A stretch of 64,000 nt of DNA from Pseudomonadota bacterium. Its GTDB lineage: Bacteria > Pseudomonadota > Gammaproteobacteria > Steroidobacterales > Rariloculaceae. The DNA is taken from contig JAYZFC010000002.1 in assembly GCA_036337035.1 (NCBI GenBank), positions 208,138 through 272,137 on the forward strand. Direction: 5' to 3'. How positions within the stretch are numbered: position 1 is the first letter of the stretch; each line of letters opens with the position of its first letter. A program made the translations under genes and the position numbers. This document shows positions 20,098 to 35,620 of the stretch, piece by piece. The notes beneath the pieces were generated by a model. It was given only the letters and a program-made list of their open reading frames with translations. It ran no database searches and was not told the origin of the DNA.

Positions 20098-21147
20098 TTA
20101 GACTGAGTCTTCAACTACACACTCATAAGGCTCGACAGTTTCACCTGGCAGATTAATCCAATGAGCTTCCCAAACAAAAGGTTCTACTAGAGAGCTAGGT
20201 TCATCAACAACTAGCTTATAATGCAAAACATCATCGGTTGCATTGAAATACTCTGTTAGTTTTACATTTTCTGACTGAGGAACACCCACTCTATTAAGAT
20301 ATGGCCAGTTAATCCTATCTGTTTTAACTACCAAGGTAGAATCTTGCCACTCTCCAATTGAATATCCAGTATGAGAGAAGGGCATATCTTCTGGAGCTAT
20401 AACATTTTCTCCCATAACAATAGTTCTTTTAGCATCAAATTCTTCAAAAATAATTTCTATATTTCCACCAACCTGGATAAATTGCATTGGATAAGGGTTT
20501 CCCATCAATGAAGGCATACCAGGAGGTACACATTCCAACAAAGGGTTATCAAGAATATTATCAAAATTCGATACAGCGATCTTAGCAGACTCCATCAAAT
20601 TTTGTGGCTGTGAGAAAAACCAAGCTCTAACAGCCTGGCTCCAAACTTTATAAATATTTTCTCTAGATAAAGAACTATCTATATCTGGAGTTTCGCTATA
20701 ACCAATGTCAATTGCTAATCTACGATCGTCACCTATAAAAGTATTAGACCATCTTGGCTCACTAGATGCTCCTAACAATAGCTCTAATTGTTGATCCTGA
20801 ATAAGCATATGAGATACTTGAATATAATTATCTCTTGCAGTTGATGGATTGCCCGCTACTAAAACCCTATCTCCAATAGAAACCTCATCGCCAGTAAATC
20901 CTCTTCTTCTTTGGGCACTAATTGAGCCTCCTTCTATGGTCCAAATTATAGTTGATGAGTCTTCTCCTTGCTCTTGAACCTCAAGCAATATGTGGGGGTT
21001 TCTCCAACTTATTTTTGATACTAGACCTTCAATTTCTCTAACAACACTGCGATCAAATTCAGCCATAGAGTGATGAGATGATGCATGTGAACAAAGAAAA
21101 AAAAGAGTTATCGAAATAGTACTTTTAATAGTCATTATAAACTCCAA
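20098..21147 (-). CDS. secreted hypothetical protein
   Basis: 349 aa with a signal peptide. The N-terminal HHSMAEFDRSVVREIEGLVSKISWRNPH block resembles small DUF6152-type exported proteins. The rest is unassigned. Confidence 0.45.
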   Translation of the reverse strand: MEFIMTIKSTISITLFFLCSHASSHHSMAEFDRSVVREIEGLVSKISWRNPHILLEVQEQGEDSSTIIWTIEGGSISAQRRRGFTGDEVSIGDRVLVAGNPSTARDNYIQVSHMLIQDQQLELLLGASSEPRWSNTFIGDDRRLAIDIGYSETPDIDSSLSRENIYKVWSQAVRAWFFSQPQNLMESAKIAVSNFDNILDNPLLECVPPGMPSLMGNPYPMQFIQVGGNIEIIFEEFDAKRTIVMGENVIAPEDMPFSHTGYSIGEWQDSTLVVKTDRINWPYLNRVGVPQSENVKLTEYFNATDDVLHYKLVVDEPSSLVEPFVWEAHWINLPGETVEPYECVVEDSV

Positions 21148-22276: not shown

Positions 22277-23284
22277 ATGACACTTAAACAACTTAAATAC
22301 CTGATTTGCATTGCTGATAATGGCCTTAATATATCTTCTGCTGCAGAAAAACTCTATACAAGCCAGCCGGGAATAAGTAAACAAATAAAGTACCTTGAAG
22401 CTGAGCTAGGAATGCAGCTATTTAAGAGAAAAGGAAAAAGTCTAGTGTCTATTACAAGTGCAGGGTTTGAGGTAATTGAAAAGGCAAGAAAGATTCTTAG
22501 AGAATCAGAAAATATTAAAAGAATTGCGGGTGATCTTTCAGGTGAAGAAGAAGGCAAGCTTTCGATTGCAACTACTCATACTCAAGCAAGATACATTTTA
22601 CCTGATATTATTAAAAATTTTACTCAAAAATATCCAAAAATAGATTTGGAACTTCATCAGGGAACTTCTGAACAGATCGCAGAACTGATTAATACTCATC
22701 AAGTTGATTTTGCTATGGCGACAGGGGCAATAAAATATTTCCCTAGCCTTAAATTACTTCCGCTTTTTAATTGGAATAGAATAATCCTTGTTCCTAAAAA
22801 TCACCCTATATCTATAAAAAAGATAAGTTTAGAATCTCTTTCATCCTATCCTTTAGTAACCTATATTTTTAGTCTTACTGGAGACTCATCTTTTAAACAA
22901 GCATTTCTAGATAAAAAACTAAATCCAAGAGTTGTATTTACAGCAAGAGATGCTGATATTATCAAAACTTATGTTCGAATTGGAATGGGGGTTGGAGTAG
23001 TTGCTTCAATGACCTTTGAGGAAAATGATTCTCATGATTTAACTCCTATAGATGCATCAAATTTATTTCCAGAAGTTACCACTTGGCTAGGATTTCCAAA
23101 AGATATGGTTCTTAGAAGCTATATGAAAGATTTTATTAATATGCTTTCACCAATATATAATAATAATTTAATAAAACAAATTATTGATTGCAATGATCAG
23201 GAATCTATTGACATATTGTTATCGTCAATCACTTTTCCTACATATAGATTCTCCTCTAATAAAAAGAAGCTAACCCTGAATTAA
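22277..23284 (+). CDS. cysB: LysR-family regulator, CysB-like
   Basis: MTLKQLKYLICIADNGLNISSAAEKLYTSQPGISKQIKYLEAELGMQLF parallels the CysB/Cbl N-terminal HTH. Divergent from cysK. Confidence 0.75.
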   Translation: MTLKQLKYLICIADNGLNISSAAEKLYTSQPGISKQIKYLEAELGMQLFKRKGKSLVSITSAGFEVIEKARKILRESENIKRIAGDLSGEEEGKLSIATTHTQARYILPDIIKNFTQKYPKIDLELHQGTSEQIAELINTHQVDFAMATGAIKYFPSLKLLPLFNWNRIILVPKNHPISIKKISLESLSSYPLVTYIFSLTGDSSFKQAFLDKKLNPRVVFTARDADIIKTYVRIGMGVGVVASMTFEENDSHDLTPIDASNLFPEVTTWLGFPKDMVLRSYMKDFINMLSPIYNNNLIKQIIDCNDQESIDILLSSITFPTYRFSSNKKKLTLN

Positions 23285-24634
23285 TTTTTTGGCAATGGAA
23301 ATTCCAGATTCCATGGCGCCCTCCATTCCTCTATTCTCTTTTGCTAAATGCTCGCCACAGAAATGAATATTATTATGAGAATCTCCAAGAATATTAGCGT
23401 AATTTCTAATCTGACCAGGTCTATAATAAGCCCAAGCACCTTTAGAAAATCTCTCATTACCCCAAGATATTAAATCAATAAATTCTAGCTGACCCTTTGA
23501 TGCTGGCCTAATATTTTCAATAGTTTTAGTAATTAATTCTGCCGCTTCGTTCTTTGGTAATCTATCAATTGCTTCTGCATTCTTTCCAAAAATCCAAGAA
23601 GTAAAACTTGAAATCTCTTTAGGGTTATCTCTACTTCTTGTTGCACTAAACATACCTACTAGGCTATTTGAAAAAAAACTTGGGTTATATTCATCTAATT
23701 CCCAGAACTTTGACTTATGCCTAAAATAAATTTGAGTCATCGGCTGATAAGGTATATTTTTAATTGCTTCATATTGCTTTGGTGGAAGATCGGGAATAAA
23801 TAAAATTTCTTTTAACACACTTAGAGGAATTGAACATATCACATGATTGGCTACATATTGACTACCATCTTCACAAAATATTGAAATCTCATTTCTCCCT
23901 GAATTTATACTAAGTACATTTTTATTGAAATGAATTTCTTTTTCTAACTGAGATGACATAATGTCAGTAAAGGTGCTTACTCCATTTAATGCTGTGTATC
24001 CGATTACTTTATCGTCAATCATCTTCTGATCTGAAGAAAATGCTGCTCTATATAATAATAGAAGTGTAGAAACATCTTTAGCATCTAAGCCGTAACTTAC
24101 ATTTATACCATAAACTAGCTTGATCTGATCTTCGCTAAAACCCTTATCTTTTAACCATTGCTCAAATGGAATATCATAAATAAGATTTTTCTTATCTAAC
24201 CATTCTCCAGCGCTATTTAGTGGATTATATTGCTTAGTAAGAACTCTATATATTGACCATGGCATAATATTTCTAAATTTTTCAGGAAAAATATTTTTTT
24301 TACTACTAGGCCAATCTTTTTGTGTAATTATTTCATTATCTAAAACAAGATCTTGCTCCTTAAAAAAAGAAAGCATATGAGAAACATCAATCAAATCAAT
24401 ATTATTATTTTTTGCAAATTCTATGATCATTTTATAATTAGCGCCTATATATGTTCCTCCGGCTTCTATATTCCTACCGAAATGATCCATAGAATGAATT
24501 CTTCCACCAGATCTATCATTAGCCTCAATCACTTGAACACTTAACCCCATTTTCTGTAATTCTAATGCGGCTACTAATCCAGATAACCCTGCACCAATGA
24601 CAACAACAGATCGTTTTATTTTTTTTGATAACAC
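23270..24634 (-). CDS. FAD-dependent amine-oxidase-family flavoprotein (MAO-like)
   Basis: VVVIGAGLSGLVAALEL...VIEANDRSGGRI, GGTYIG and C-terminal FCGEHLAKENRGMEGAMESG resemble monoamine/polyamine oxidases more than canonical HemY. It lies 8 nt downstream of hemH on the same strand. Confidence 0.75.
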   Translation of the reverse strand: MLSKKIKRSVVVIGAGLSGLVAALELQKMGLSVQVIEANDRSGGRIHSMDHFGRNIEAGGTYIGANYKMIIEFAKNNNIDLIDVSHMLSFFKEQDLVLDNEIITQKDWPSSKKNIFPEKFRNIMPWSIYRVLTKQYNPLNSAGEWLDKKNLIYDIPFEQWLKDKGFSEDQIKLVYGINVSYGLDAKDVSTLLLLYRAAFSSDQKMIDDKVIGYTALNGVSTFTDIMSSQLEKEIHFNKNVLSINSGRNEISIFCEDGSQYVANHVICSIPLSVLKEILFIPDLPPKQYEAIKNIPYQPMTQIYFRHKSKFWELDEYNPSFFSNSLVGMFSATRSRDNPKEISSFTSWIFGKNAEAIDRLPKNEAAELITKTIENIRPASKGQLEFIDLISWGNERFSKGAWAYYRPGQIRNYANILGDSHNNIHFCGEHLAKENRGMEGAMESGISIAKKLIQG

Positions 24635-24642
24635 TTATCTAT

Positions 24643-25716
24643 TTATTCTGCTTGGCATAAAGAGGGTTTTGTTGGTCCTGGTCTTCCAGAGAGACAGCAA
24701 TCTGGAGGACAATAGTTATGGCTTGGACCTAAAGAGCCTAAACTAGGCCTAATATCATCGCTGCTTAATCTTTCTTGAACCAAGCTTGTTACCATAGATA
24801 TATAGGCTGGATGATCCCCTACAGTTTTAGCCCTAACCATATTTATATTTGACTCTTTAGCTGATGATTGTGCCTCTATATCAAGATCAAGAACTACCTC
24901 CATATGATCACAAACAAAACCTATAGGGACTATAACTAAATTCTTATATCCTCTACTTGATAAATTTTTTATGGCATCTTCTATATCTGGCTCTAACCAT
25001 GGCTCACCATAAGAAGCATTATTACTCTGAAAGATAAGATCCCAGTTTTTAACCATTAATGAGTTCGCAACTAAAGAACTAGCTTCCTTTAATTGAGTTA
25101 CATATTTAGTATGTTTAGACATCGAAAGGGGCAAGCTATGAGCTGTAAAAAAAATTATAGTCTCTTTCTCATCAAATAATCCAAGCTTATCAATAGCATC
25201 CTTCGCACGAGAGCAAACTGCTTCTATAAATCCAGGATGATTAAAACCTAATCTCAACTTATCCACCTTAAAAGGATTGCCTAGAGCCTCATTAGCTACA
25301 TAGAGATCTTCTCGATATTTTCTACAACCGCTATAAGAGCTAAAAGTGCTTGTAACAAAAGTTATAACATTTTTTACTCCATCATCGTGCATAGCTTCAA
25401 ATGTATCTTTCAGCATGGGATGCCAATTTCTATTACCCCAATAAACAGGCAAATTAATATTATTCTTTAATAAATCCTTCTTTAGCGCTGCTATAAATTT
25501 TCTGGTCTCTTCGTTTATTGGGCTGATACCATCAAATTGGTGATATCTTTTTGCTATAGCTTGTTTAGCTCTATCTGGAACATTTAACCCTTCTAATACA
25601 TTATCTAAAAATGGAAGAACATCATCCATCCCCTCGGGCCCTCCAAAAGAGAGTACTAGTAAAGCATCATAACTATTACTACCACTATCAATTAAATTTT
25701 GGGACTTGTTTGCCAT
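24643..25716 (-). CDS. hemH: ferrochelatase, actinobacterial (coproporphyrin ferrochelatase-like) type with Cys-rich C-terminus
   Basis: LLVLSFGGPEGMDDVLPFLDNV...DGISPINE...PVYWGNRNWHP...SSYSGCRKY parallels Mycobacterium-type ferrochelatase as I recall it. The C-terminus reads CPPDCCLSGRPGPTKPSLC. Confidence 0.88.
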   Translation of the reverse strand: MANKSQNLIDSGSNSYDALLVLSFGGPEGMDDVLPFLDNVLEGLNVPDRAKQAIAKRYHQFDGISPINEETRKFIAALKKDLLKNNINLPVYWGNRNWHPMLKDTFEAMHDDGVKNVITFVTSTFSSYSGCRKYREDLYVANEALGNPFKVDKLRLGFNHPGFIEAVCSRAKDAIDKLGLFDEKETIIFFTAHSLPLSMSKHTKYVTQLKEASSLVANSLMVKNWDLIFQSNNASYGEPWLEPDIEDAIKNLSSRGYKNLVIVPIGFVCDHMEVVLDLDIEAQSSAKESNINMVRAKTVGDHPAYISMVTSLVQERLSSDDIRPSLGSLGPSHNYCPPDCCLSGRPGPTKPSLCQAE

Positions 25717-25722
25717 AGCCTA

Positions 25723-26499
25723 TCAAAGAGAATATTCTGGACGCCATGTATCTTTCGTATCCTCATCTATGCCTTGACTCTGATAATGCCAAATACGCCT
25801 TCCGACAAAGAAAGGGCCTAAGCTTTCTAAATATTGAGAGGTTTGCTCAGTTGTTCTCATTTCTTCAACGACAGCAGAAAGGGGATGTAAATAAAAACCT
25901 AATAATCCAATGACAAAATCATTATCATTTTTATCTAATCCATGACAAGCCAGTCTTATATCTGTAGCTAGGTTATCATGCCCATATCTTTTTGCTAGAC
26001 TACCGTGTTCACCTAGAATTTTTTTTTGCTTCGCTTCTGGCAAAACATAGAATTCCTTCTTTCTTCGAAGTGGATACCAGATTCCAAACTCATTATTTTC
26101 ATCAAGAATCTTGTTCAAAGGTCTGACCAATAAAGTATCTTCTAGATCTTGTTCATAACCAATAGAATAAGTTCTTCCTAGCATATCAAATTCAGACTTA
26201 TGATTTAGCAGGGAAAAAGATTCTGTTTGAAAAACATTTCTTAAGTCATTTGATCCCAGCTTATCCATTTCATACCAATTAACAATTCCTATACCGCTAG
26301 GATCGTTAAGATCTTGATAAATAACAGCAGATACGCCATTTCTTCTAAAAGCACTAGTAATATCCTTTAACATTTCACGATCTTTACAGTTATTAAAGGC
26401 TGTAAATTTTATAAATAATCTTCTATCGAGGGAAATTTGTTTTCCATCCTTCATACCCTTTTCACTAAGATCAACTATATTCTCTTTTTCATCAGCCAT
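25723..26499 (-). CDS. hemQ: chlorite-dismutase-family protein, HemQ/ChdC-like coproheme decarboxylase
   Basis: 258 aa. YPLRRKKEFYVLPEAKQKKILGEHG...MRTTEQTSQYL...PFFVGRRI is colinear with actinobacterial HemQ (YPFVRSYEWYLLP...ADHG...LRATDARRH...PFFTG). Sits between hemE and hemH. Confidence 0.72.
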   Translation of the reverse strand: MADEKENIVDLSEKGMKDGKQISLDRRLFIKFTAFNNCKDREMLKDITSAFRRNGVSAVIYQDLNDPSGIGIVNWYEMDKLGSNDLRNVFQTESFSLLNHKSEFDMLGRTYSIGYEQDLEDTLLVRPLNKILDENNEFGIWYPLRRKKEFYVLPEAKQKKILGEHGSLAKRYGHDNLATDIRLACHGLDKNDNDFVIGLLGFYLHPLSAVVEEMRTTEQTSQYLESLGPFFVGRRIWHYQSQGIDEDTKDTWRPEYSL

Positions 26500-26504
26500 A
26501 TTAT

Positions 26505-27527
26505 CTATTCCCTATTCTCTTCGTTATGTATTTCATCAATCAAAGCATCTACACTCTCTAAAGGAGTGTTTGGCATAATGCCATGTCCGAGATTCATAAT
26601 ATGCCCAACTGGATCAACATTTTTAAGAAGTTTTTTTGTCTCTTGGCGAGTTGCTTCCGGACCAGCAACAAGAATCGCAGGGTCCAAATTACCCTGAATT
26701 GCCCTATTCTTACCATAAAGATTCTTTATCTCTGATAAATTAACTCTCCAATCAACAGCTAACACCTCAGAAGGTAGCTCTGCATATGCATTAACTAAAT
26801 GAGGAGCATTTTGTAAAAAAATAATTCTAGGTACATTAATTTTACCTATTTCAGAAAGTAAAAATTCTAAATGGGGCTTAATGTATTTCTGCCAACTATC
26901 TAGAGATAATAAACCAGCCCAAGAATCAAATATTTGTACTGCATCTACACCTGCTTCTACCTGACTTTTAAGATAGCTAATCATATGTAATGTAATTTTT
27001 TCTAATAGCCGTTCCATAACTTCTGGCTCTGAAGCTAAGAAAGATCTTAATTTTGGAAAATCCTTATTACCTTTGCCTTCCACTAAATAAGCTGACAATG
27101 TCCATGGAGCGCCACAAAAGCCTAATAATGCTATTTCATTAGAGAGCTCACTTCTTGTTTGAGCAATCGCCTTCATTACTTCTGGAGCAATTTCTTCTGC
27201 CCCCGTATCAATAAGATTATCTACATCTTTATTGTCCGAAATAGGATTAGTAATAATTGGTCCAGGGTTAAAATCAAAATCAATTCCTAAAGATGGAACA
27301 GGGCTCATAATATCAGCAAAAATGATTGCTGCATCTAAATCAAATCTCTTAATTGGAAGAAGAGTAACCTCAGTAGCAAAATCAGACGATCTAGATAAAT
27401 CTTTAAAACTATGTGTTTTTCTAAGAGCTCTATATTCTGGTAAATATCTGCCAGCCTGCCTCATAATCCATAAAGGCCTTCTAGGAGTTGGATTTCTATT
27501 AATAGACTCTAAGAGTATCTTTTCCAA
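26505..27527 (-). CDS. hemE: uroporphyrinogen decarboxylase
   Basis: 340 aa. PLWIMRQAGRYLPEYR signature, FDSWAG, NLGHGI. Confidence 0.92.
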   Translation of the reverse strand: MEKILLESINRNPTPRRPLWIMRQAGRYLPEYRALRKTHSFKDLSRSSDFATEVTLLPIKRFDLDAAIIFADIMSPVPSLGIDFDFNPGPIITNPISDNKDVDNLIDTGAEEIAPEVMKAIAQTRSELSNEIALLGFCGAPWTLSAYLVEGKGNKDFPKLRSFLASEPEVMERLLEKITLHMISYLKSQVEAGVDAVQIFDSWAGLLSLDSWQKYIKPHLEFLLSEIGKINVPRIIFLQNAPHLVNAYAELPSEVLAVDWRVNLSEIKNLYGKNRAIQGNLDPAILVAGPEATRQETKKLLKNVDPVGHIMNLGHGIMPNTPLESVDALIDEIHNEENRE

Positions 27528-27539
27528 TTGACTTTCCTT

Positions 27540-28274
27540 TTAATTATTATCTTCTTTAGGATTAACAAAAAATTGATATCCCACACCTCTAACAGTATGA
27601 AAATATTCAGGTGATTCTGGATTAATTTCAAATCTTTTTCTGAGTCTAACAATAAAATTATCTATCGTTCTAGTAGAGGGAAAAACTTCGTAGCCCCATA
27701 CTTTATCTAATATCTCTTCTCTTGTTATTACTGTATCGATATTTTCAGAAAAAAGCTTTAAAATCATAATCTCTTTATGCGTAAGGACGTGCTCAACACC
27801 TTCCCATGACTTTGCCCTATAAGTTTTAAAATTAATAGAATTCTTACCAAAATTAAGAAAAGAATTATCATCTTTTAGCCATTCGCTTCTTCTTAATATA
27901 GCAGAAATCCTAAGCAATAATTCCCTTAGATGAAAAGGCTTACCTAGATAATCATCTCCACCAGCTTCTAATCCAGAAACCCTATCATCTAAACTATTTT
28001 TTACTGTCAAGAACAAGACTGGTACCTGGGATCCTGATGATCTAATTCTATCGCAAACCTCTATACCATCTAATTTAGGCATCATCACATCAAGTAAAAT
28101 TAGATCATATTTATTATCTAGAGCCTTGGTAAGTCCCTCTTCTCCATCATAGGCTATTTCAACATCATACCCCTCTGAAACAAGGCTTTCCTTTATTCCT
28201 TCAGATATATTCACTTCATCATCAATAACTAATATTTTATTCATACTCATAACTCTATCTATTCTATAGGCCAA
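27540..28274 (-). CDS. OmpR/PhoB-family response regulator
   Basis: Receiver domain (ILVIDDE...LILLDVMMPKLDG...LTVK...GGDDYLGKPF) plus winged-helix (IDNFIVRLRKRF...TVRGVGY). The true start may be the internal MSMNK/MNK. Confidence 0.88.
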   Translation of the reverse strand: MAYRIDRVMSMNKILVIDDEVNISEGIKESLVSEGYDVEIAYDGEEGLTKALDNKYDLILLDVMMPKLDGIEVCDRIRSSGSQVPVLFLTVKNSLDDRVSGLEAGGDDYLGKPFHLRELLLRISAILRRSEWLKDDNSFLNFGKNSINFKTYRAKSWEGVEHVLTHKEIMILKLFSENIDTVITREEILDKVWGYEVFPSTRTIDNFIVRLRKRFEINPESPEYFHTVRGVGYQFFVNPKEDNN

Positions 28275-29260
28275 GTAATAATAAATATAGCGCCTTTATT
28301 TATTCCATCACTCGTAGATATAATTTTTCCGTCTAATAAAGAAACTAACTTTTTGACAATATATAATCCCAATCCACTACCTGGCATAGATCTTACTAAC
28401 TCATCTCCTGATCTATAGAATTTTTCAAAAATCATTTCATTATCCTTAATTGGATACCCCATACCATCATCCTTGATAGCAAGAATTATACTATTATTTT
28501 TACATTCTCCCTTTATCTCTATATTAGAAGATTTAGCAGCATTACATGATTTAATTGAATTATCTATTATGTTTGCAATTATTGATTCAAGAATTAATCT
28601 ATCAGAATAAATATCTAATCCTTTATCTAAATTCAAACTAATATTTATATTCTCTAATAAGTCTTCTGAAAAATTAGATATACATGATTCAATTACAGTT
28701 TTTAAATAAACCTTTTCTTTCTTGATAGTAACTTTTCCTGATTCAATCTTGCTAGTATCTAGCAAGTTATCTATCATGCGTAAAAGTCTATCAACATCAC
28801 TTAAAACTCTATTAATTCTTTTATTATATCTACTAGAAGGCTTATCAAGTAAAATAGCTTCAGCTGATATCCTAATACTTGCAAGAGGTGATTTTAATTC
28901 ATGAGAAATAGCAGCTAAAAAATTTTGCTGCCTTTTTCTTAGATCATATTCTCTTCTAATTGTTACAGTAAGTATTCCAATTCCTATAATTAAAACTAGT
29001 AAGAAAAATGATCCCTCCCATATAACTCTATTAATTCTACTTTCTGAATCTTCATATAACTTTTCTATATAACTTTGGCTATATATAGTAGATTCTTCAT
29101 TTGGATCGGTAGATATCAGCACTGATAAAAATTCATCTCTAACTGTATTTGTGTAATTTACCTGATCAATAATCCAAAAAGCTACTTGCCCTATTGAAAC
29201 AATTAACAATATAAGAAGACCTATTTGTAACACATTAGTAGGGTTAAATTTTTTTAACAT
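28259..29260 (-). CDS. sensor histidine kinase (2 TM, ~50-aa outer loop, no HAMP/PAS)
   Basis: H-box FLAAISHELKSPL begins about 12 residues after TM2. N-box NIIDNSIKS and G-boxes DDGMGY, GSGLGL are present. Overlaps hemL by 17 nt and the response regulator by 16 nt. Confidence 0.85.
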   Translation of the reverse strand: MLKKFNPTNVLQIGLLILLIVSIGQVAFWIIDQVNYTNTVRDEFLSVLISTDPNEESTIYSQSYIEKLYEDSESRINRVIWEGSFFLLVLIIGIGILTVTIRREYDLRKRQQNFLAAISHELKSPLASIRISAEAILLDKPSSRYNKRINRVLSDVDRLLRMIDNLLDTSKIESGKVTIKKEKVYLKTVIESCISNFSEDLLENINISLNLDKGLDIYSDRLILESIIANIIDNSIKSCNAAKSSNIEIKGECKNNSIILAIKDDGMGYPIKDNEMIFEKFYRSGDELVRSMPGSGLGLYIVKKLVSLLDGKIISTSDGINKGAIFIITWPIE

Positions 29261-30575
29261 TTATTTCCCCAGTTTTATAATTGAAGCTACAATTAGTTAA
29301 TATTTTTTCAATTCTTTCTATAAAGAAATTAATATCTTCTTTTGTATGAACAGATGATAAAAAACCAACTTCATACGCAGAAGGAGCTATATATATGCCG
29401 CTATCTATTAGCGCATGAAATAGTCCTGAAAAGGTTTTAGCAGATCTATTATCTATAAGCTCAGCAGACCTTATTTGATAATTTGAATGAAGGGATAGCC
29501 AAAAAATTGAGCCAACCCTTGAAAAAAATATTTCAAATGGAGATTTTTTTATGATGTCATTTATAGAACTTTCAAAATATGCTCCGATATTTTCTAAGTA
29601 TTCCCAAATATTTTCCTTTTTTAAGCACTTCAGGGTCGCTAAACCAGCAGACATTGCTACAGGATTTCCTGATAATGTACCAGCTTGATAGACTCCTCCT
29701 ATAGGTGCAAGCTTCTCCATTATATTTTTTCTTGAAGCAAATGCTCCAACTGGCAAACCTCCTCCTATAACTTTTCCAAATGTTGCAATGTCAGGGATAA
29801 CATCATAATATCCTGCTGCTCCCGTTTCTCCAATCCTAAAGCCTGTTATAACTTCATCAAAAATCAATAGAGTGCCATATTGATTACATAAATCTCTTAA
29901 TAGCTTAATATAATCTTTCCTTTGAACTAATAGCCCATTATTAGCTGGTATTGGTTCTATTATTACTGCTGCTATATCAGAACCCTCTTTTGAAAAAAGC
30001 TCAATCAGCTCTTTCTCATTATCTAGTGGTAAAACTCTAGTTAATTCTGTAAATTTATTAGGTATTCCGTCTGATGATGGTTTATTAAAAGTTGTTGAGC
30101 CAGATCCAGCTGAAACCAATAATGAGTCTACATGGCCGTGGTAACAACCTGAGAACTTAACAACTATATCTCTCTTTGTTGAGCCTCTTGCAAGCCTTAT
30201 TGCACTCATTACTGCTTCTGTACCAGAAGAAACAAATCTTATTTGCTCAATGCCTGGGTATGAAGAAACTATTTCTTCAGCTAACATAACTTCAGCCTCA
30301 CAAGGTGCTCCAAATGAAGTGCCTAAGCTTGCTGCTAATTTAATTGATTTCAAAACTTCTGAATTAGCATGTCCAAGGATAAGAGGACCCCAAGAACCTA
30401 AAAAATCTAAATATGAATTTCCATCTTGATCAGTTAAATACGAAGATTTTCCTGACTTAATAACTTTTGGTAATCCACTGACTGCATGAAATGCTCTAAC
30501 TGGAGAATTAACACCTGCAGGGATAACTTTTTTTGCTCTAGTAAACAGTTCCTTAGATTTAGATTTCATAGCCAC
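29244..30575 (-). CDS. hemL: glutamate-1-semialdehyde 2,1-aminomutase
   Basis: 443 aa. IPAGVNSPVRAF, GSWGPLILGH, FDEVITGFR, TFGKVIGGGLPVGAF (PLP lysine). Confidence 0.92.
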   Translation of the reverse strand: MAMKSKSKELFTRAKKVIPAGVNSPVRAFHAVSGLPKVIKSGKSSYLTDQDGNSYLDFLGSWGPLILGHANSEVLKSIKLAASLGTSFGAPCEAEVMLAEEIVSSYPGIEQIRFVSSGTEAVMSAIRLARGSTKRDIVVKFSGCYHGHVDSLLVSAGSGSTTFNKPSSDGIPNKFTELTRVLPLDNEKELIELFSKEGSDIAAVIIEPIPANNGLLVQRKDYIKLLRDLCNQYGTLLIFDEVITGFRIGETGAAGYYDVIPDIATFGKVIGGGLPVGAFASRKNIMEKLAPIGGVYQAGTLSGNPVAMSAGLATLKCLKKENIWEYLENIGAYFESSINDIIKKSPFEIFFSRVGSIFWLSLHSNYQIRSAELIDNRSAKTFSGLFHALIDSGIYIAPSAYEVGFLSSVHTKEDINFFIERIEKILTNCSFNYKTGEINVKKI

Positions 30576-31549
30576 TGGCCTTTGATTGCATCCCTCGCAT
30601 GATATGAGATTATTTGATTAGCCCCAGCTCTAGCTATTGCATATAAATTTTCTCTAACAACTGAAGCTTCATCTAACCAACCTTTTTCTGCAGCTGCCTT
30701 AACAGCAGAGTATTCACCAGAAACATTATATGCAGATAAGGGCAGTGAGCATTCAGAACTAACTGTTTTTATTATATCCAAAAAGGCTAGAGCTGGTTTA
30801 ACCATAAGCATATCTGCACCCTCTTCTTCATCTATTTTAGCTTCTCTAATCGCCTCTTTAACATTTCTTATATCCATTTGGTAAGTTTTCCTATCGCCAT
30901 CATTAGGTGATGAATCAGCAGCTTCTCTAAATGGGCCGTAGTATGCTGAAGCATACTTTACAGCATAAGAAAGGATGCCTACATTCTCTAAATCTTCCTT
31001 ATCAAGAGTTTCTCTAATTTTTTTAACTCTCCCATCCATCATGTCTGAAGGGGCCACAATATCTGCTCCAGCTTCTGCATGACTTAAAGCAATATTTGCT
31101 ATTGCATCTAAAGATAAGTCATTGATAACATGGCTATTTTTAACAAATCCACAATGGCCGTGATCTGTATAAGCACAAAGACAGACATCAGTAATAACAA
31201 TAACTTCATCACCAAAGGTATCTTTTAGTCTTCTCACTGCGTTTTGAATGACACCTTTCGAATTCCATGCTTCCCTACCATCAGGAAACTTATCACTTAA
31301 ACTACCCGGTTGGCCAAAAAGTAAAACAGCATTAATTCCTATTTTCAAATCAATATCTACTTCCTTTAAAAGCTCTTCTATGCCTAACTTAAACCTTCCA
31401 GGCATTGACAAAATCTCTTCTCTTTCAGTTGGTTTTGGTAAAAGAAAATGAGGAATAATAAACTGTTTTGGTAAAATATTTATTTCAGCATTAAGATCTC
31501 TAATAGCTTTAGATTTTCTATTCCTACGTGGTCTTTTAACTATATTCAT
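30566..31549 (-). CDS. hemB: porphobilinogen synthase (delta-aminolevulinate dehydratase), Cys-rich Zn-site type
   Basis: 327 aa. RPRRNR N-terminus, DVCLCAYTDHGHCG zinc site, MVKPA active-site lysine, SGEY. Confidence 0.92.
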   Translation of the reverse strand: MNIVKRPRRNRKSKAIRDLNAEINILPKQFIIPHFLLPKPTEREEILSMPGRFKLGIEELLKEVDIDLKIGINAVLLFGQPGSLSDKFPDGREAWNSKGVIQNAVRRLKDTFGDEVIVITDVCLCAYTDHGHCGFVKNSHVINDLSLDAIANIALSHAEAGADIVAPSDMMDGRVKKIRETLDKEDLENVGILSYAVKYASAYYGPFREAADSSPNDGDRKTYQMDIRNVKEAIREAKIDEEEGADMLMVKPALAFLDIIKTVSSECSLPLSAYNVSGEYSAVKAAAEKGWLDEASVVRENLYAIARAGANQIISYHARDAIKGQWL

Positions 31550-32264
31550 TCATCACCCTAATTAATCCTTCTAATCCCGGTTTTTCAGAAACACCCATTA
31601 CCTTTATTCCTAGAGATTCAGCTTTCTTCTTTGTCGTATTGCCAATGGTATAAACCTTTGCTTCTACATCATTCTCTACCTGATTAACAAATCCCTGAAC
31701 AGCAGATGGGCTTGCAAAAAAAATAGTATTTATATTAATTTCTGATAGTAATTTTTTTTTATTTAATTGCTTAATTGGTTCCGTTCTATAAATATTTATC
31801 CTTTCACATAAAATATCTTCAGATATTAGCTTTTTTTCAATAATATTATTTGCATTTTCTGCAACAGCTAATAAGACTTTGCTACCTTTATCGATTATTG
31901 AAACGAGCTCTTTTGAAAATGATATTGAATTACTCTCTACTCCCACATAATTAACTCTATTAAAATAATTTTTACAACTATCTTCAGTGGCTTGACCAAT
32001 TGCTGCAATCTTTGTGTCTGTAGAGATCTTGTAGCTATTTATCTTGCTGAAATATTCCACTCCCTTTCTTGATGTAAAAACTATCCAGTCTATTTTCTGT
32101 ATTTGACTTATTTTTTTATTTAATTTTGATTTTTCAATAGAAATAAAATCAATACATGGAAGAATAGTGCTATGAAAACCTATTTCCTTTATTTTAGAAG
32201 ACCAATTAATACTATCTTCCTTGCTCCTAGTAAGTAATATTCGATAATTATATTCTATATTCAT
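31536..32264 (-). CDS. hemD: uroporphyrinogen-III synthase
   Basis: 242 aa. ILLTRSKEDS start and a two-lobed size and pattern. The position between hemC and hemB (4-nt and 14-nt overlaps) supports the call. Confidence 0.65.
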   Translation of the reverse strand: MNIEYNYRILLTRSKEDSINWSSKIKEIGFHSTILPCIDFISIEKSKLNKKISQIQKIDWIVFTSRKGVEYFSKINSYKISTDTKIAAIGQATEDSCKNYFNRVNYVGVESNSISFSKELVSIIDKGSKVLLAVAENANNIIEKKLISEDILCERINIYRTEPIKQLNKKKLLSEININTIFFASPSAVQGFVNQVENDVEAKVYTIGNTTKKKAESLGIKVMGVSEKPGLEGLIRVMNEYS

Positions 32265-33169
32265 TTTTTTATTAATATTGACATAGTTTTTTTAAATAAC
32301 TCTTTCCTATTTTTTCCTCTTACTCTAGATTCTATTATCTTTCCATTTAACTCTAATCTTGAAACTAATTTAATATACTGATTATCATCTGTATCAGGGA
32401 AGCAATATGAACCAAAAGGTAAATTGCATCCGCCTTCAAACTGAGCTAATAAAAGCCTCTCTAAATCTACATTTCTTCTTGCATCAGAATCATTAATACT
32501 TTCTATTATTTTTTTAATATTAGTATTTCTTTCATGACACTGAATAGCTATTGCTCCTTGTGACGGAGCTGGTATAAATATCTCTGGATCTAATCTAATA
32601 ATTTCTAGCCCTTCTAAATTTAGATTAATTTTATTATCTAATAGTCTTTGAATACCTGCATTTGCTAATACTATAGCATCATAACCTTTATTAATTTTTT
32701 TAATACGAGTAGGAACATTTCCTCTGATAGGCTTTATTTTTATATCATCTCTAAAATACTCTAACCAAGACTTTCTTCTTACAGATGATGTTCCAATAAC
32801 TGAGTTCTCCTTCAAAGGAATAAAACCTAATGAGCTATCAACATAATCTCTATTAGCAACAATAATATCTGCTGGATCAATTCTTTCACTAATTGCAGCT
32901 ATAGTAAGACCTTCCGATGAAGTTGCAGGTAGGTCCTTACATGAATGCACAGCTATATCTACTTTACCCTCAATTAATGCCTTTTCAATTTCCTTAACAA
33001 AAATACCTATAGGTCCTATTTCACTAAAATTCAAATTATTAGACAAATCACCGACTGTATCTATTTTAACTAGCTCAGTCTTGTGGCCCATAGACGATAA
33101 ATGTTTTGAAACAGATAATGACTGTTTTATAGCTAGATCAGAACTTCGAGTACCTATTCTTATATGCAT
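32261..33169 (-). CDS. hemC: hydroxymethylbilane synthase (porphobilinogen deaminase)
   Basis: 302 aa. IRIGTRSSDLAIKQ, DIAVHSCKDLP, GTSSVRR, RGNVPTR, and a dipyrromethane Cys in GGCNLP. Confidence 0.92.
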   Translation of the reverse strand: MHIRIGTRSSDLAIKQSLSVSKHLSSMGHKTELVKIDTVGDLSNNLNFSEIGPIGIFVKEIEKALIEGKVDIAVHSCKDLPATSSEGLTIAAISERIDPADIIVANRDYVDSSLGFIPLKENSVIGTSSVRRKSWLEYFRDDIKIKPIRGNVPTRIKKINKGYDAIVLANAGIQRLLDNKINLNLEGLEIIRLDPEIFIPAPSQGAIAIQCHERNTNIKKIIESINDSDARRNVDLERLLLAQFEGGCNLPFGSYCFPDTDDNQYIKLVSRLELNGKIIESRVRGKNRKELFKKTMSILIKK

Positions 33170-34503
33170 TACTTAATTACCTTATCATCCTGTTCTAGCT
33201 GAAGGCTTAAAACAGATTTCAATTCTTTTGCAAAGTCCTCATCAACCCCTTCTAAAAAAGCATCTAATGAGCCTTCTGGGCCCTTATGAATTAATCCTCT
33301 AATACCAACAGACGGAATATGAGCAAATCTCTTTGCTAAAGAAGTGCACCATGCCTTTATCGCATCCTTCTCCTTGCTACCAATCCCTTTTAATTCTTTT
33401 CTCATAAGTTTTTTTAATCCTTCTTGTGCAGTATAATGATATCTATCTTGTAAAATAGAGAAAATGGGAGCATACATTCTCTCTGCATATACCTCAGGAA
33501 GATCTAATAAAGCCTTATCTATAATCTCTCTAGCAATTGCTGACTCATTTAATCTAGAACTATGATTCTTTTTTGCTTCATTATTAATTTGATCTAAACC
33601 AATTCTTTTAATTCCTAGAATATCGCATGCTTTAGGATCAATATCATACGTTAAAGACATATCAATAAATAATTTATCACTTAGCTGAGATCCATTGATA
33701 GTCAATTTCTCTAAGAAAATCTTATCAAAAATATAATTATCTGAACTAGTTGAAGAAAATAAGCAAGAAAAATTATCTGGTGAAGATAAGAACTTTTCTA
33801 ATGAAATATATTTAGTATTATATTGATTAGATATTTTTTTAATCTTATTTACTGTTCTATTAATAAAAAAGAATGGGATATTAATTTCATGTAAAGATTT
33901 AGCAACTTTCTTAATAACATCTGACATGCCAACTAAAGCAATAGGCTCTTTATAGTTATCATAATGATTCTTAATATGAATAATTGAAATCTCTGATAAT
34001 GATGTTTTCCCTCTGCTTATTCCAGTTGCTTCTCTTACATTAGCAGAAACTTTTAGTGCTTGCTCAAATAATAAATCTATCCTCTGTCCTATAAGATTAT
34101 TTCTTAAAAATAAATCCTTACATTTCTTAACCTGTCCTGTTATCTCAGTCTCACCAAGAGCTGCAGAATCTAATCCTGAGGTAACTAAAAATATGTGTTC
34201 GCAGGCTCCCTCAGAATGCCATGCTCTAAGTTTTTTTCTTGCCTCTCCTGGCGCTGGTTTATTTCCTGTTAATAGCTCAAATATAAATGGCCTAAGATCT
34301 TTATGCTCAGTATATTTAGTTGAGGAATAGATTATTTCAATTCTATTACAAGTAGTTAAATAGACAATTCCAGATAACCCATGTCTAATCTTAAAATCTT
34401 CTAATTTATTATGTAATCCCTGTTCCTCTAGCAAGTATTGCTTAAGATCAACAGTCTGATCCTGTCTCCATGATGTACCTACAACATTAAGATCATCTAA
34501 CAT
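33169..34503 (-). CDS. hemA: glutamyl-tRNA reductase (divergent)
   Basis: 444 aa. TTCNRIEIIY active-site Cys motif, HIFLVTSGLDSAALGETEITGQVK, INRT. The N-terminus and dinucleotide-binding loop are atypical. Confidence 0.8.
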   Translation of the reverse strand: MLDDLNVVGTSWRQDQTVDLKQYLLEEQGLHNKLEDFKIRHGLSGIVYLTTCNRIEIIYSSTKYTEHKDLRPFIFELLTGNKPAPGEARKKLRAWHSEGACEHIFLVTSGLDSAALGETEITGQVKKCKDLFLRNNLIGQRIDLLFEQALKVSANVREATGISRGKTSLSEISIIHIKNHYDNYKEPIALVGMSDVIKKVAKSLHEINIPFFFINRTVNKIKKISNQYNTKYISLEKFLSSPDNFSCLFSSTSSDNYIFDKIFLEKLTINGSQLSDKLFIDMSLTYDIDPKACDILGIKRIGLDQINNEAKKNHSSRLNESAIAREIIDKALLDLPEVYAERMYAPIFSILQDRYHYTAQEGLKKLMRKELKGIGSKEKDAIKAWCTSLAKRFAHIPSVGIRGLIHKGPEGSLDAFLEGVDEDFAKELKSVLSLQLEQDDKVIK

Positions 34504-34579: not shown

Positions 34580-35620
34580 CTATTTAAAAGATGTTAAAAC
34601 TACTTTCTGTAAGTCATCAAAATTATCCTGTATTTGTTTTGCTAAATTTAACTGTCCTTTTGATCTAATAATATTATGCTCACTATGGCTATTATAGATT
34701 TTATTATTCCAGCTAAAATATGACTCATTTAAAGCATCTACACAAAATCTTGCTGATAATTCAAGAGTAATAAATAAAAAGGAGGGCAATATATTTTCAT
34801 ACTCAGTTTTCTTTAAGATATCTCTACCTTCGATTGCATATCCCTCCAATACATTTTTAAAATAAGATAAAGATAAAGTAGAATCTTCGTGATCTTCACT
34901 TTTTTGATTGCACCATGAGCGAAGTGCATCTCCAATTTCATAATATATTGGCCTTTCACCTAAAGTATCTAAGTCAATGAGGCATATAGCCTCATCCTTA
35001 TCATTAAATATAATGTTTGTAATCTTAGGGTCTCCGTGAACTTTCCTTAACTGGCTATCATCTAAATTAGGCATTAATTCAGATAAATTAAATATTTGAT
35101 TTGATATTTCCTTTACTATTTTAATATTTTTATGATTTTTTTTGTTAATTAAAGTTTTTTCTATTTCTTCTTTATAATAGGAGAAATTATAATGATATTT
35201 TTTTTTATAAGAAAAATTATAATCATAATTGTTAATAATTTTATGAAACCTACCTAATAATTCTCCTGCACTTCTTGCCTGTTGTTTATTCTTTAGACAA
35301 TTAAAATTATGGCCTTCAATATAGCTTAGCTGCCTCCATACATATCCATCCAGTTCAATAAAAATTTCTCCAGTAGTACTAGGTATAATTGATGGTGTTT
35401 TAAAATTATTTTTTAAAAAAAATTTAGTTATGTTATCTATATCTTTATTAATTTCCTTGGGAAAGATTTTATTGACTCTTTGAATTATTGACCTAGGTTT
35501 GCCATTATTTTTCACCACCCAAGTCTTATTTATCAAACCTGAATCAATAATCTCTAGATCAGAACCATCAAGGCCAAAGAATTTCCTAATTCTATTATCA
35601 ATGAGTTTATCTTGATTCAT
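34580..35620 (-). CDS. APH-fold phosphotransferase, N-acetylhexosamine-1-kinase (NahK)-like
   Basis: 346 aa. SIIQRVNKIF, VHGDPKITNIIFNDKDEAICLIDLDTLGERPIYYEIGDALRSW resembles the NahK-type H(G/N)D.K..N...D...IDLDT..PG...D.GD..R catalytic region. Confidence 0.55.
   Translation of the reverse strand: MNQDKLIDNRIRKFFGLDGSDLEIIDSGLINKTWVVKNNGKPRSIIQRVNKIFPKEINKDIDNITKFFLKNNFKTPSIIPSTTGEIFIELDGYVWRQLSYIEGHNFNCLKNKQQARSAGELLGRFHKIINNYDYNFSYKKKYHYNFSYYKEEIEKTLINKKNHKNIKIVKEISNQIFNLSELMPNLDDSQLRKVHGDPKITNIIFNDKDEAICLIDLDTLGERPIYYEIGDALRSWCNQKSEDHEDSTLSLSYFKNVLEGYAIEGRDILKKTEYENILPSFLFITLELSARFCVDALNESYFSWNNKIYNSHSEHNIIRSKGQLNLAKQIQDNFDDLQKVVLTSFK

Follow-up and report, generated by a model that had tools for sequence, protein, structure and literature searches.

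A haem operon in a streamlined marine gammaproteobacterium that probably ends in a coproporphyrin-dependent route

The 64,000-nucleotide stretch of DNA considered here (the window, C2:208138-272137 of a 1.22 Mb assembly in 10 contigs that is 90.6% complete and has about 32% G+C) comes from an uncultured marine gammaproteobacterium with a streamlined genome, and it carries a cluster of haem biosynthesis genes whose last three members, a chlorite dismutase (Cld)-family gene, the ferrochelatase gene hemH and a flavin amine oxidase gene, are our subject. Proteins more than 90% identical to the HemE and HemH of this cluster are labelled 'Gammaproteobacteria bacterium TMED78', and those about 60% identical are labelled 'Candidatus Rariloculaceae' or 'Gammaproteobacteria bacterium'. 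Open reading frame (ORF) and profile annotation places eleven co-directional and tightly packed genes on the minus strand, running from 34503 down to 23270, with gaps of 5, 6 and 8 bp between the last four (hemE, the Cld-family gene, hemH and the amine oxidase gene) and a convergent cysB-like gene met at the 3' end. We read the eleven genes as a single operon, ordered hemA-C-D-B-L, histidine kinase, response regulator, hemE, ChdC-like gene, hemH and amine oxidase, which probably encodes the path from glutamyl-tRNA to haem:

33169-34503, minus strand: hemA-like glutamyl-tRNA reductase, first gene of the operon (TIGR01035, 175.4 bits, below the cut-off of 209.55)
32261-33169, minus strand: hemC, hydroxymethylbilane synthase (TIGR00212, 258 bits, cut-off 164)
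31536-32264, minus strand: hemD, uroporphyrinogen-III synthase (PF02602, 138.5 bits)
30566-31549, minus strand: hemB, porphobilinogen synthase (NF006762, 443 bits, cut-off 297)
29244-30575, minus strand: hemL, glutamate-1-semialdehyde aminomutase (NF000818, 563.7 bits, cut-off 398)
28259-29260, minus strand: sensor histidine kinase (HisKA and HATPase_c domains)
27540-28274, minus strand: OmpR-type response regulator (Response_reg and Trans_reg_C domains)
26505-27527, minus strand: hemE, uroporphyrinogen decarboxylase (TIGR01464, 386.5 bits, cut-off 302.95)
25723-26499, minus strand: ChdC-like Cld-family protein, candidate coproheme decarboxylase (PF06778, 56.6 bits)
24643-25716, minus strand: hemH, actinobacterial-type ferrochelatase, candidate CpfC (PF00762, 262 bits; TIGR00109 above cut-off)
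23270-24634, minus strand: monoamine oxidase (MAO)/putrescine-oxidase-like FAD oxidase, last gene of the operon, candidate coproporphyrinogen III oxidase (PF01593, 184.8 bits)

The hemA-like gene is divergent, occurs in single copy and is the sole glutamyl-tRNA reductase candidate in the genome. An earlier inspection of the letters and ORFs (the sequence-only reading) had placed the Cld-family gene between hemE and hemH, and the three ORFs are indeed found in this arrangement on the minus strand with the first two of the gaps given above between them, together with the motifs that it quoted (for the Cld-family protein LGEHGS and LGPFFVG; for HemH SFGGPEGMDDVLPFLDNVL, GNRNWHP and SYSGCRKY). It had also let the cluster end at hemH, and in this it missed the flavin amine oxidase gene that starts 8 bp further downstream in the slot of CgoX. 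Its core idea of a coproporphyrin-dependent (CPD) terminal branch in a proteobacterium is supported by those of its proposed checks that were run and is retained here, with a more precise placement of the decarboxylase family and with the overlooked oxidase added.

Six-frame profile searches of the whole 1.22 Mb assembly gave no match to HemF (PF01218), HemJ (PF03653) or the HemG-type flavodoxin (PF12724), and none to the HemN family (TIGR00538) even at E = 0.001. For HemY (TIGR00562) there was no match above the cut-off, and the best sub-threshold match in the assembly was the amine oxidase of the operon itself. The lack of hemF, hemN, hemG and hemJ noticed earlier for the cluster is therefore correct and extends to the whole assembly, as does the lack of a hemY above cut-off. 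A CxxxCxxC scan of all ORFs recovered five radical-SAM-type ORFs which we read from local sequence as MoaA-, RlmN-, MiaB-, BioB- and LipA-like, and therefore none is taken to be HemN, HemW or AhbD. The genome has one Cld-family gene and one ferrochelatase gene, and every haem gene is present in single copy. It also has 15 ORFs with CxxCH, many of them behind signal-like N-termini, and haem is therefore needed by the cell.

We looked for the Cld-like gene in an even sample of 400 genomes from the class, and for it and the other genes in 201 genomes from the order (22 from the window's own family and 179 from other families). The Cld-like gene was found in only one of the 400 class genomes, which was the window's own, and in 21 of the 22 family genomes (11 genera, with genomes of 1.2–5.5 Mb, several of them single-contig) against none of the 179 genomes from other families, so that what had looked like an oddity of one genome is family-wide instead. 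HemF was absent from all 22 family genomes, several of which are single-contig and 97–100% complete, and present in 134 of the 179 others, while strong HemJ matches (>120 bits) were seen in many other families and only outside the window's own. The ferrochelatase model NF000689 scored 344–384 bits in the same 21 family genomes and no more than 127 bits in every other family of the order. Across the 201 genomes the presence of the ChdC-like gene is a mirror image of that of HemF, and the replacement of one pathway by another would predict just this, a gain of three genes coupled to the loss of HemF and HemJ at a single node of the tree.

We note that four family genomes (G518, G525, G567 and G574) contain weak HemJ-like ORFs of 34–67 bits. 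Similar weak second copies occur beside a strong HemJ in other families, and these look like a divergent HemJ/CopD-like paralogue. It should also be noted that genomes of the sister families f4, f259 and partly f258 (e.g., G385, G419 and G418, and including streamlined genomes of 1.4 Mb) have no ferrochelatase match at E <= 1e-10, weak HemF-like and HemJ matches only, and each at least one copy of the amine oxidase family exported by the twin-arginine translocation (Tat) pathway. Haem auxotrophy is one possible explanation for these bacteria, and a further route to haem is another.

The ferrochelatase had been called actinobacterial in type, and this is borne out by its best solved relative, PDB 28wn ('Coproporphyrin III ferrochelatase', 362 aa), which it matches over the full length at E = 1e-70 and 241.8 bits, compared with 112–128 bits for Firmicute CpfCs and about 99 bits for the human PpfC in the same PDB sequence search. 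The two proteins share the SFGGPEG, NRNWHP and SGCR(K/Q)Y motifs and an aligned C-x3-C-C tail, with Cys131 (in SGCRKY) and C336-x3-C340-C341 of the window protein aligned to Cys residues of 28wn; they differ in the tail, where the window protein has Cys354 as an additional conserved residue but not the Cys that stands furthest upstream in 28wn. Of the proteobacterial operon copies, 22–23 of 23 keep Cys131, Cys336, Cys340 and Cys341, and 19 of 22 keep Cys354. These similarities group the window ferrochelatase with the actinobacterial CpfCs rather than with the proteobacterial and eukaryotic PpfCs, and make the C-terminal Cys cluster and the internal Cys putative [2Fe-2S] ligands. Actinobacterial CpfCs with a C-terminal [2Fe-2S] cluster form a clade of their own (PMC7340540), and the Cys motif of such ferrochelatases has been defined (PMC8529089). 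None of these Cys residues is found in the short ferrochelatases of the Chloroflexota and Gaiellaceae operons which also carry a ChdC-like gene. The data lend no support to a transfer of the terminal genes as one package from the Chloroflexota, as the operons of that phylum pair the ChdC-like clade with this different, short and Cys-less ferrochelatase (26–30% identical).

The Cld-family protein is less easily placed. The curated model for actinobacterial HemQ (NF042928, HemQ_actino) gives it 40.8 bits against a cut-off of 235 and NF008913 gives 24.6 bits against 253, while PF06778 covers residues 134–235 only. We therefore describe it from its sequence as ChdC-like and of a separate clade, outside both characterised HemQ subfamilies, and not as the actinobacterial HemQ suggested by the sequence-only reading. 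The colinearity with that protein claimed at the same time stands for the C-terminal domain (residues ~134–237), where it is seen at the level of sequence, and does not for the N-terminal domain, which matches HemQ by predicted fold only. An AlphaFold (AF2) model built on 28 family members (pLDDT 90, pTM 0.86) was compared with the PDB using Foldseek, and the top 41 matches were all of the ChdC/HemQ type and not Clds, including two older entries deposited as putative chlorite dismutases. The best of these were the ChdCs of S. coelicolor, C. diphtheriae and L. monocytogenes (E ~1e-12, TM-scores of 0.62–0.75), with true chlorite dismutases ranked below the ChdCs. The model thus predicts the Cld/ChdC fold, which is made up of two ferredoxin-like domains and has its haem site in the C-terminal domain. 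Profile matches gave the same ranking, being weak for the N. defluvii Cld (E = 0.005–0.7) and stronger for ChdCs (1e-10 to 1e-6).

Residues central to ChdC catalysis can be located in this protein. In the sequence and profile alignments Tyr142 is aligned to the catalytic Tyr (Y135 of C. diphtheriae ChdC), a register that is fixed by the Y135A chain whose alignment begins one residue after that of the wild type. Pfanzagl et al. are said to have worded the ChdC motif in 2018 as -Y-P-(M/F)-x-(K/R)-, and the window protein has Y142-P-L-R-R146, with Leu where ChdCs have Met or Phe and with Arg146 four residues past the Tyr at the ChdC Lys/Arg site. His165, in LGEHG, is aligned to the proximal His of the EHG/DHG/AHG motif in the C. 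diphtheriae, S. coelicolor, Geobacillus and Listeria ChdCs and is invariant in 81/81 family sequences, and Arg215 is aligned to the conserved MR..E arginine. On the distal side, Asp180 is aligned to the distal Gln of Firmicute ChdC, at a position which we take to be also the site of the catalytic distal Arg of Cld, and is followed two residues later in the same predicted β-strand (E179-184) by an invariant Arg182. In all, R27, Y61, G108, R109, Y111, E116, W141, Y142, P143, R146, E164, H165, D180, R182, R215, T217, Q219, T220 and GPFF are invariant in the 81 sequences, which represent about 15 phyla. The patterns with which the loci had been collected pre-selected WYP..R and DNDF, and the other invariant residues are free of this.

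Of the characterised proteins, actinobacterial ChdC (C. diphtheriae 6XUB/6XUC and S. coelicolor 9MIQ) comes closest in fold, with TM-scores of up to 0.75. It shares with the window protein the catalytic Tyr and the proximal His, as well as the MR.TE arginine and the PFF.G end. It differs in the distal region, as the window protein has the invariant Asp180-x-Arg182 on the distal strand and no equivalent of the distal His118 was identified in it (the roles of the catalytic Tyr and of this His are described in PMC10427985). Chlorite dismutase (N. defluvii 3NN1 and related proteins) has the same fold of two ferredoxin-like domains and the same proximal His, but matches the window protein less well than ChdC does. 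A functional chlorite dismutase is very improbable on account of these weak matches, of the Asp at what is presumably the canonical distal Arg position, and of the haem-operon context, although with Arg182 so near to that position the lack of a distal Arg is not clear-cut. The DyP peroxidases belong to the same structural superfamily and activate H2O2 with a distal Asp and Arg (PMC7611857); Asp180-x-Arg182 resembles this pair, but there is no relationship between the two at the level of sequence and we offer the resemblance as an idea only.

The ChdC-like clade is large, highly conserved and extends well beyond the family. A search of a 5.8-billion-protein set recovered more than 7,700 homologs, most of them about 60% identical to the window protein; at 50% identity there are 488 clusters, and a scan of one genome per species confirmed at least 591 loci. 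The taxa among the loci listed include gamma- and 'alpha'-proteobacterial metagenome-assembled genomes (MAGs), Chloroflexota, Acidobacteriota, Elusimicrobiota, Rokubacteria/Methylomirabilota, Dadabacteria/Thermodesulfobacteriota, Latescibacterota, Gemmatimonadota, Gaiellaceae, Pirellulaceae and others. We kept 80 of these loci for an analysis of gene neighbourhoods, and in 35 of them, from at least four phyla, the ChdC-like gene lies beside haem genes. The proteobacterial loci repeat the window order of hemD-hemB-hemL-histidine kinase-response regulator-hemE-Cld-hemH-oxidase, except that an Alphaproteobacteria-labelled subclade has the kinase, the regulator and hemL not at this position, and the Chloroflexota, the Gaiellaceae and one Pirellulaceae genome have hemA-hemC-hemD-hemB-Cld-hemE-hemH-hemL. 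Members of the clade are also found fused to ferrochelatase (P0246 and P0269), to PCP_red (P0177) and to aldo-keto reductase (P0181 and P0204). Together the neighbourhoods and fusions make a strong case, through guilt by association, for a link with tetrapyrrole synthesis, and the loci outside haem operons are compatible with such a role, since the sirohaem route, too, has coproheme as its last intermediate. We note that Clp_N repeats are fused to the ChdC-like protein as well (within the set P0181, P0204, P0179 and P0177), and that PCP_red is the tetrapyrrole-related C-terminal domain of protochlorophyllide reductase.

In the tree of this family 23 proteobacterial sequences, including that of the window, form one clade with 100% SH-aLRT support, and the other phyla are largely coherent. 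We had considered the loci labelled 'Rhodospirillaceae' or Rhodospirillales (L007, L012, L016 and L020) as a second transfer at phylum level and rejected this, as they interleave with Gammaproteobacteria-labelled MAGs in the tree; these loci have the full gammaproteobacterial-type operon, and the taxonomy given by the submitters is probably wrong. Inside the operon, the start and stop codons of the kinase and regulator genes between hemL and hemE (27540-29260) overlap. The response regulator is 58–65% identical among the operons of relatives; the pair keeps its position in those of the gammaproteobacterial relatives and is missing from the 'Alphaproteobacteria'-labelled subclade. Two ORFs of about 347 aa flanking the region in the window (34580-35620 and 20098-21147) have no NCBIfam match at E <= 1e-10.

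The protein encoded by the last gene of the operon is spanned over its full length by PF01593 (Amino_oxidase), and TIGR00562, the model for HemY, matches only residues 7–85 of it, with 51.9 bits (cut-off 97.85). Its sequence matches in the PDB are MAO-B, L-amino-acid oxidases (LAAOs) and putrescine oxidase at about 90 bits, and a fold search with its AlphaFold model (pLDDT 77) leads to the same enzymes, at TM-scores of 0.76–0.79; no PPOX or CgoX was among the best 60 sequence matches or the top 50 fold matches. This combined evidence excludes the possibility that it is simply a divergent HemY. The CgoX/PgoX proteins of the HemY family (B. subtilis 3I6D and M. xanthus 2IVD) do have the same PF01593 FAD amine-oxidase fold and the same operon slot after hemH, but the HemY model fits only the FAD-binding N-terminus of the window oxidase. 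The slot is presumably that of HemY in the hemEHY operon of B. subtilis.

The oxidase gene follows hemH by 8–150 bp in every complete proteobacterial operon examined, including that of a 1.2 Mb streamlined genome. An order-wide search with a profile made from the operon copies found orthologues of 645–807 bits in the majority of the 21 family genomes, where they adjoin the Cld-like gene, with lower scores in G459 (444 bits) and G567 (378 bits, a partial match), as well as paralogues of 500–595 bits in other families of the order, with up to 8 copies per genome. Restriction of this oxidase family to haem operons was thereby rejected, although these strong paralogues are Tat-exported and form a separate clade. 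All eight of the paralogues inspected lie outside haem clusters and at least six have clear twin-arginine signal peptides (e.g., DRRTTLKTFAAASVASLL and SRRHFIQAAGATAAVALA), whereas the operon copies start directly at the GxGxxG motif without a signal peptide. A branch with 100% support splits the two groups in a tree which, being unrooted, does not give the direction of change. Judged from these sequences, the operon oxidase is a cytoplasmic lineage of its own within an oxidase family that is mostly periplasmic. The genome offers no other candidate for oxidising coproporphyrinogen III, a six-electron reaction, as far as searches with the HemY, HemJ and HemG profiles go, and we assign this protein as the likely coproporphyrinogen III oxidase with some reservation. 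At L086 5312-8424 and L092 3152-8197 the Tat-exported paralogues adjoin secreted FG-GAP/ASPIC and RTX/PKD proteins and a DcaP-like porin, which suggests a periplasmic oxidative function unrelated to haem.

Our best explanation of these data, to which as a whole we give a probability of about 0.7, is that the eleven-gene operon ends in the CPD route and that this module replaced the protoporphyrin route in the ancestor of the family; use of the CPD route taken as a whole we regard as highly probable. The terminal enzymes are most likely an actinobacterial-type CpfC, a ChdC-like decarboxylase of a new clade and an oxidase that is not HemY. HemE, with its strong family matches, would supply coproporphyrinogen III, which the cytoplasmic MAO-like flavoprotein would oxidise with O2 to coproporphyrin III in what is the least certain step, and the H2O2 released in this would be what a ChdC needs. 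The Cys-cluster ferrochelatase, closely homologous to a solved CpfC, would insert Fe2+ to give coproheme. The Cld-family protein, judging from its fold, catalytic residues and gene context, would bind this coproheme through His165 and use H2O2 and a Tyr142 radical to convert propionates 2 and 4 to vinyls, giving haem b; more speculatively, Asp180-x-Arg182 on the distal strand might act as the acid-base pair for peroxide activation and so replace the actinobacterial distal His. This module would have replaced a HemF and HemJ route in the common ancestor of the gammaproteobacterial family, some members of which NCBI lists as 'Candidatus Rariloculaceae'.

The proposed route has the same logic as the CPD pathway of the Bacillota and Actinomycetota (CgoX/HemY, CpfC/HemH and ChdC/HemQ), in which HemE is followed by an oxidase, a ferrochelatase and a Cld-fold decarboxylase, and HemF, HemN, HemG and HemJ are absent in both. 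The order of hemA-C-D-B-L and then hemE-(Q)-H-oxidase presumably mirrors the hemAXCDBL and hemEHY operons of B. subtilis. The differences are that the host is a diderm gammaproteobacterium, that the oxidase is MAO-like rather than HemY and the decarboxylase of a separate clade, and that the window operon has a two-component system inside it and all 11 genes in one unit. We put forward only tentatively, as a proposal about as apt to fail as to hold and perhaps a little more so, the fuller scenario in which the native protoporphyrin route gave way, as the family arose, to a whole Terrabacteria-style haem super-operon that brought a third kind of coproporphyrinogen III oxidase, a cytoplasmic one from the MAO clade (after CgoX and CgoN), and a pan-phylum ChdC clade activating H2O2 by a DyP-like distal Asp-x-Arg instead of His or Gln.

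Several observations weigh against a CPD route with these particular enzymes. One family genome, G495 (genus g326), has neither the Cld-like gene nor the operon oxidase nor an actinobacterial-type HemH; it has no HemF or HemJ match either, and this exception could be due to a missing contig or to real loss. The window HemH scores 379 bits with NF000689, which is 29 under a cut-off of 408 that 1 of 14 control genomes passed. Other objections concern the last and third-last genes. In both sequence and fold, MAOs, LAAOs and putrescine oxidases come closer to the oxidase than do any of the enzymes that oxidise protoporphyrinogen or coproporphyrinogen. Sister families have ~40%-identical paralogues of it, in up to 8 copies per genome, which are located away from haem clusters and evidently have unrelated periplasmic roles, and the Chloroflexota, Gaiellaceae and Pirellulaceae haem operons with the ChdC-like clade have no such gene within 6 kb. 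The CPD route might thus run with an ordinary amine oxidase beside it, involved in nitrogen scavenging or perhaps supplying H2O2, with coproporphyrinogen III oxidised by another enzyme or non-enzymatically by O2. We regard this as unlikely, as the position of the gene after hemH is so strictly kept in the complete proteobacterial operons, the operon copies form a separate clade and are the only ones without the Tat signal, searches of the genome with the HemY, HemJ and HemG profiles found no other candidate oxidase, and HemY itself is a member of the PF01593 superfamily.

The Cld-family protein might alternatively be a haem- or porphyrin-binding chaperone, a sensor or a peroxidase, with the vinyl groups made by an enzyme so far unrecognised. 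It scores far under the curated HemQ models, is just 15–19% identical to solved ChdCs and is encoded away from haem genes at 45 of the 80 loci, and at least one archaeal ChdC homologue with the motif was reportedly found inactive by Pfanzagl et al. in 2018. Asp180-x-Arg182 is unlike the distal side of both characterised ChdC types, and an Arg near the distal position might allow a different haem chemistry, with the geometry of this pair read from the alignment and strand periodicity only. This is nevertheless improbable when set against the invariance of the catalytic Tyr, the proximal His, Arg146 and Arg215, the placement of the gene between hemE and hemH, the lack of any HemF, HemN, HemW or AhbD in the genome to do the chemistry, and the way in which the ChdC-like gene mirrors the loss of HemF across the 201 genomes; the sirohaem route could also explain the loci outside haem operons. 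It is very improbable indeed that the classical genes are merely missing from an incomplete MAG which uses the protoporphyrin route, with the Cld-family gene a true chlorite dismutase or irrelevant. The 90.6% completeness and 10 contigs of the assembly, and the weak HemJ-like matches in four family genomes, would allow for this, but it is largely refuted by the absence of HemF from the whole family, including the nearly complete single-contig genomes, against its frequency elsewhere, by a ferrochelatase type which switches in step with HemF absence, by the Asp at the Cld distal-Arg position, and by a Cld-family gene that is embedded in a haem operon. The CPD route remains our preferred reading.

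A review describes the CPD route as 'almost exclusively' Gram-positive (PMC10427985) and Proteobacteria are described as users of the protoporphyrin route (PMC10740692, PMC5095920), although CPD has been reported in some diderm phyla, namely the Acidobacteria, Planctomycetes, Deinococcus-Thermus, Chloroflexi and Nitrospirota (PMC5095920, PMC7611857, PMC10740692). A 2026 review holds that the known enzymes of the protoporphyrin-dependent (PPD), AHB and CPD pathways cover all haem-synthesising organisms (PMC13564367). In the published literature we found no account of CPD in the Gammaproteobacteria, of this Cld clade or of a MAO-type coproporphyrinogen oxidase, with some key older papers lying outside the search.

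The window oxidase is outside any known porphyrinogen-oxidase family, and the decarboxylase clade is found in hundreds of species from many phyla. If the fuller scenario holds, CPD would be far more widespread in diderm bacteria than reviews state and the list of its enzymes incomplete. If our reading is true, the catalogue of haem enzymes would gain new members. Automated pathway calls would need correcting, as such genomes would be scored as haem-incomplete or as carriers of 'chlorite dismutase', and the assumption that CPD enzymes are Gram-positive-specific drug targets would be weakened. An entire family of environmental Gammaproteobacteria seems to have exchanged one haem route for another, and this would provide a clean natural case of wholesale pathway replacement by transfer.

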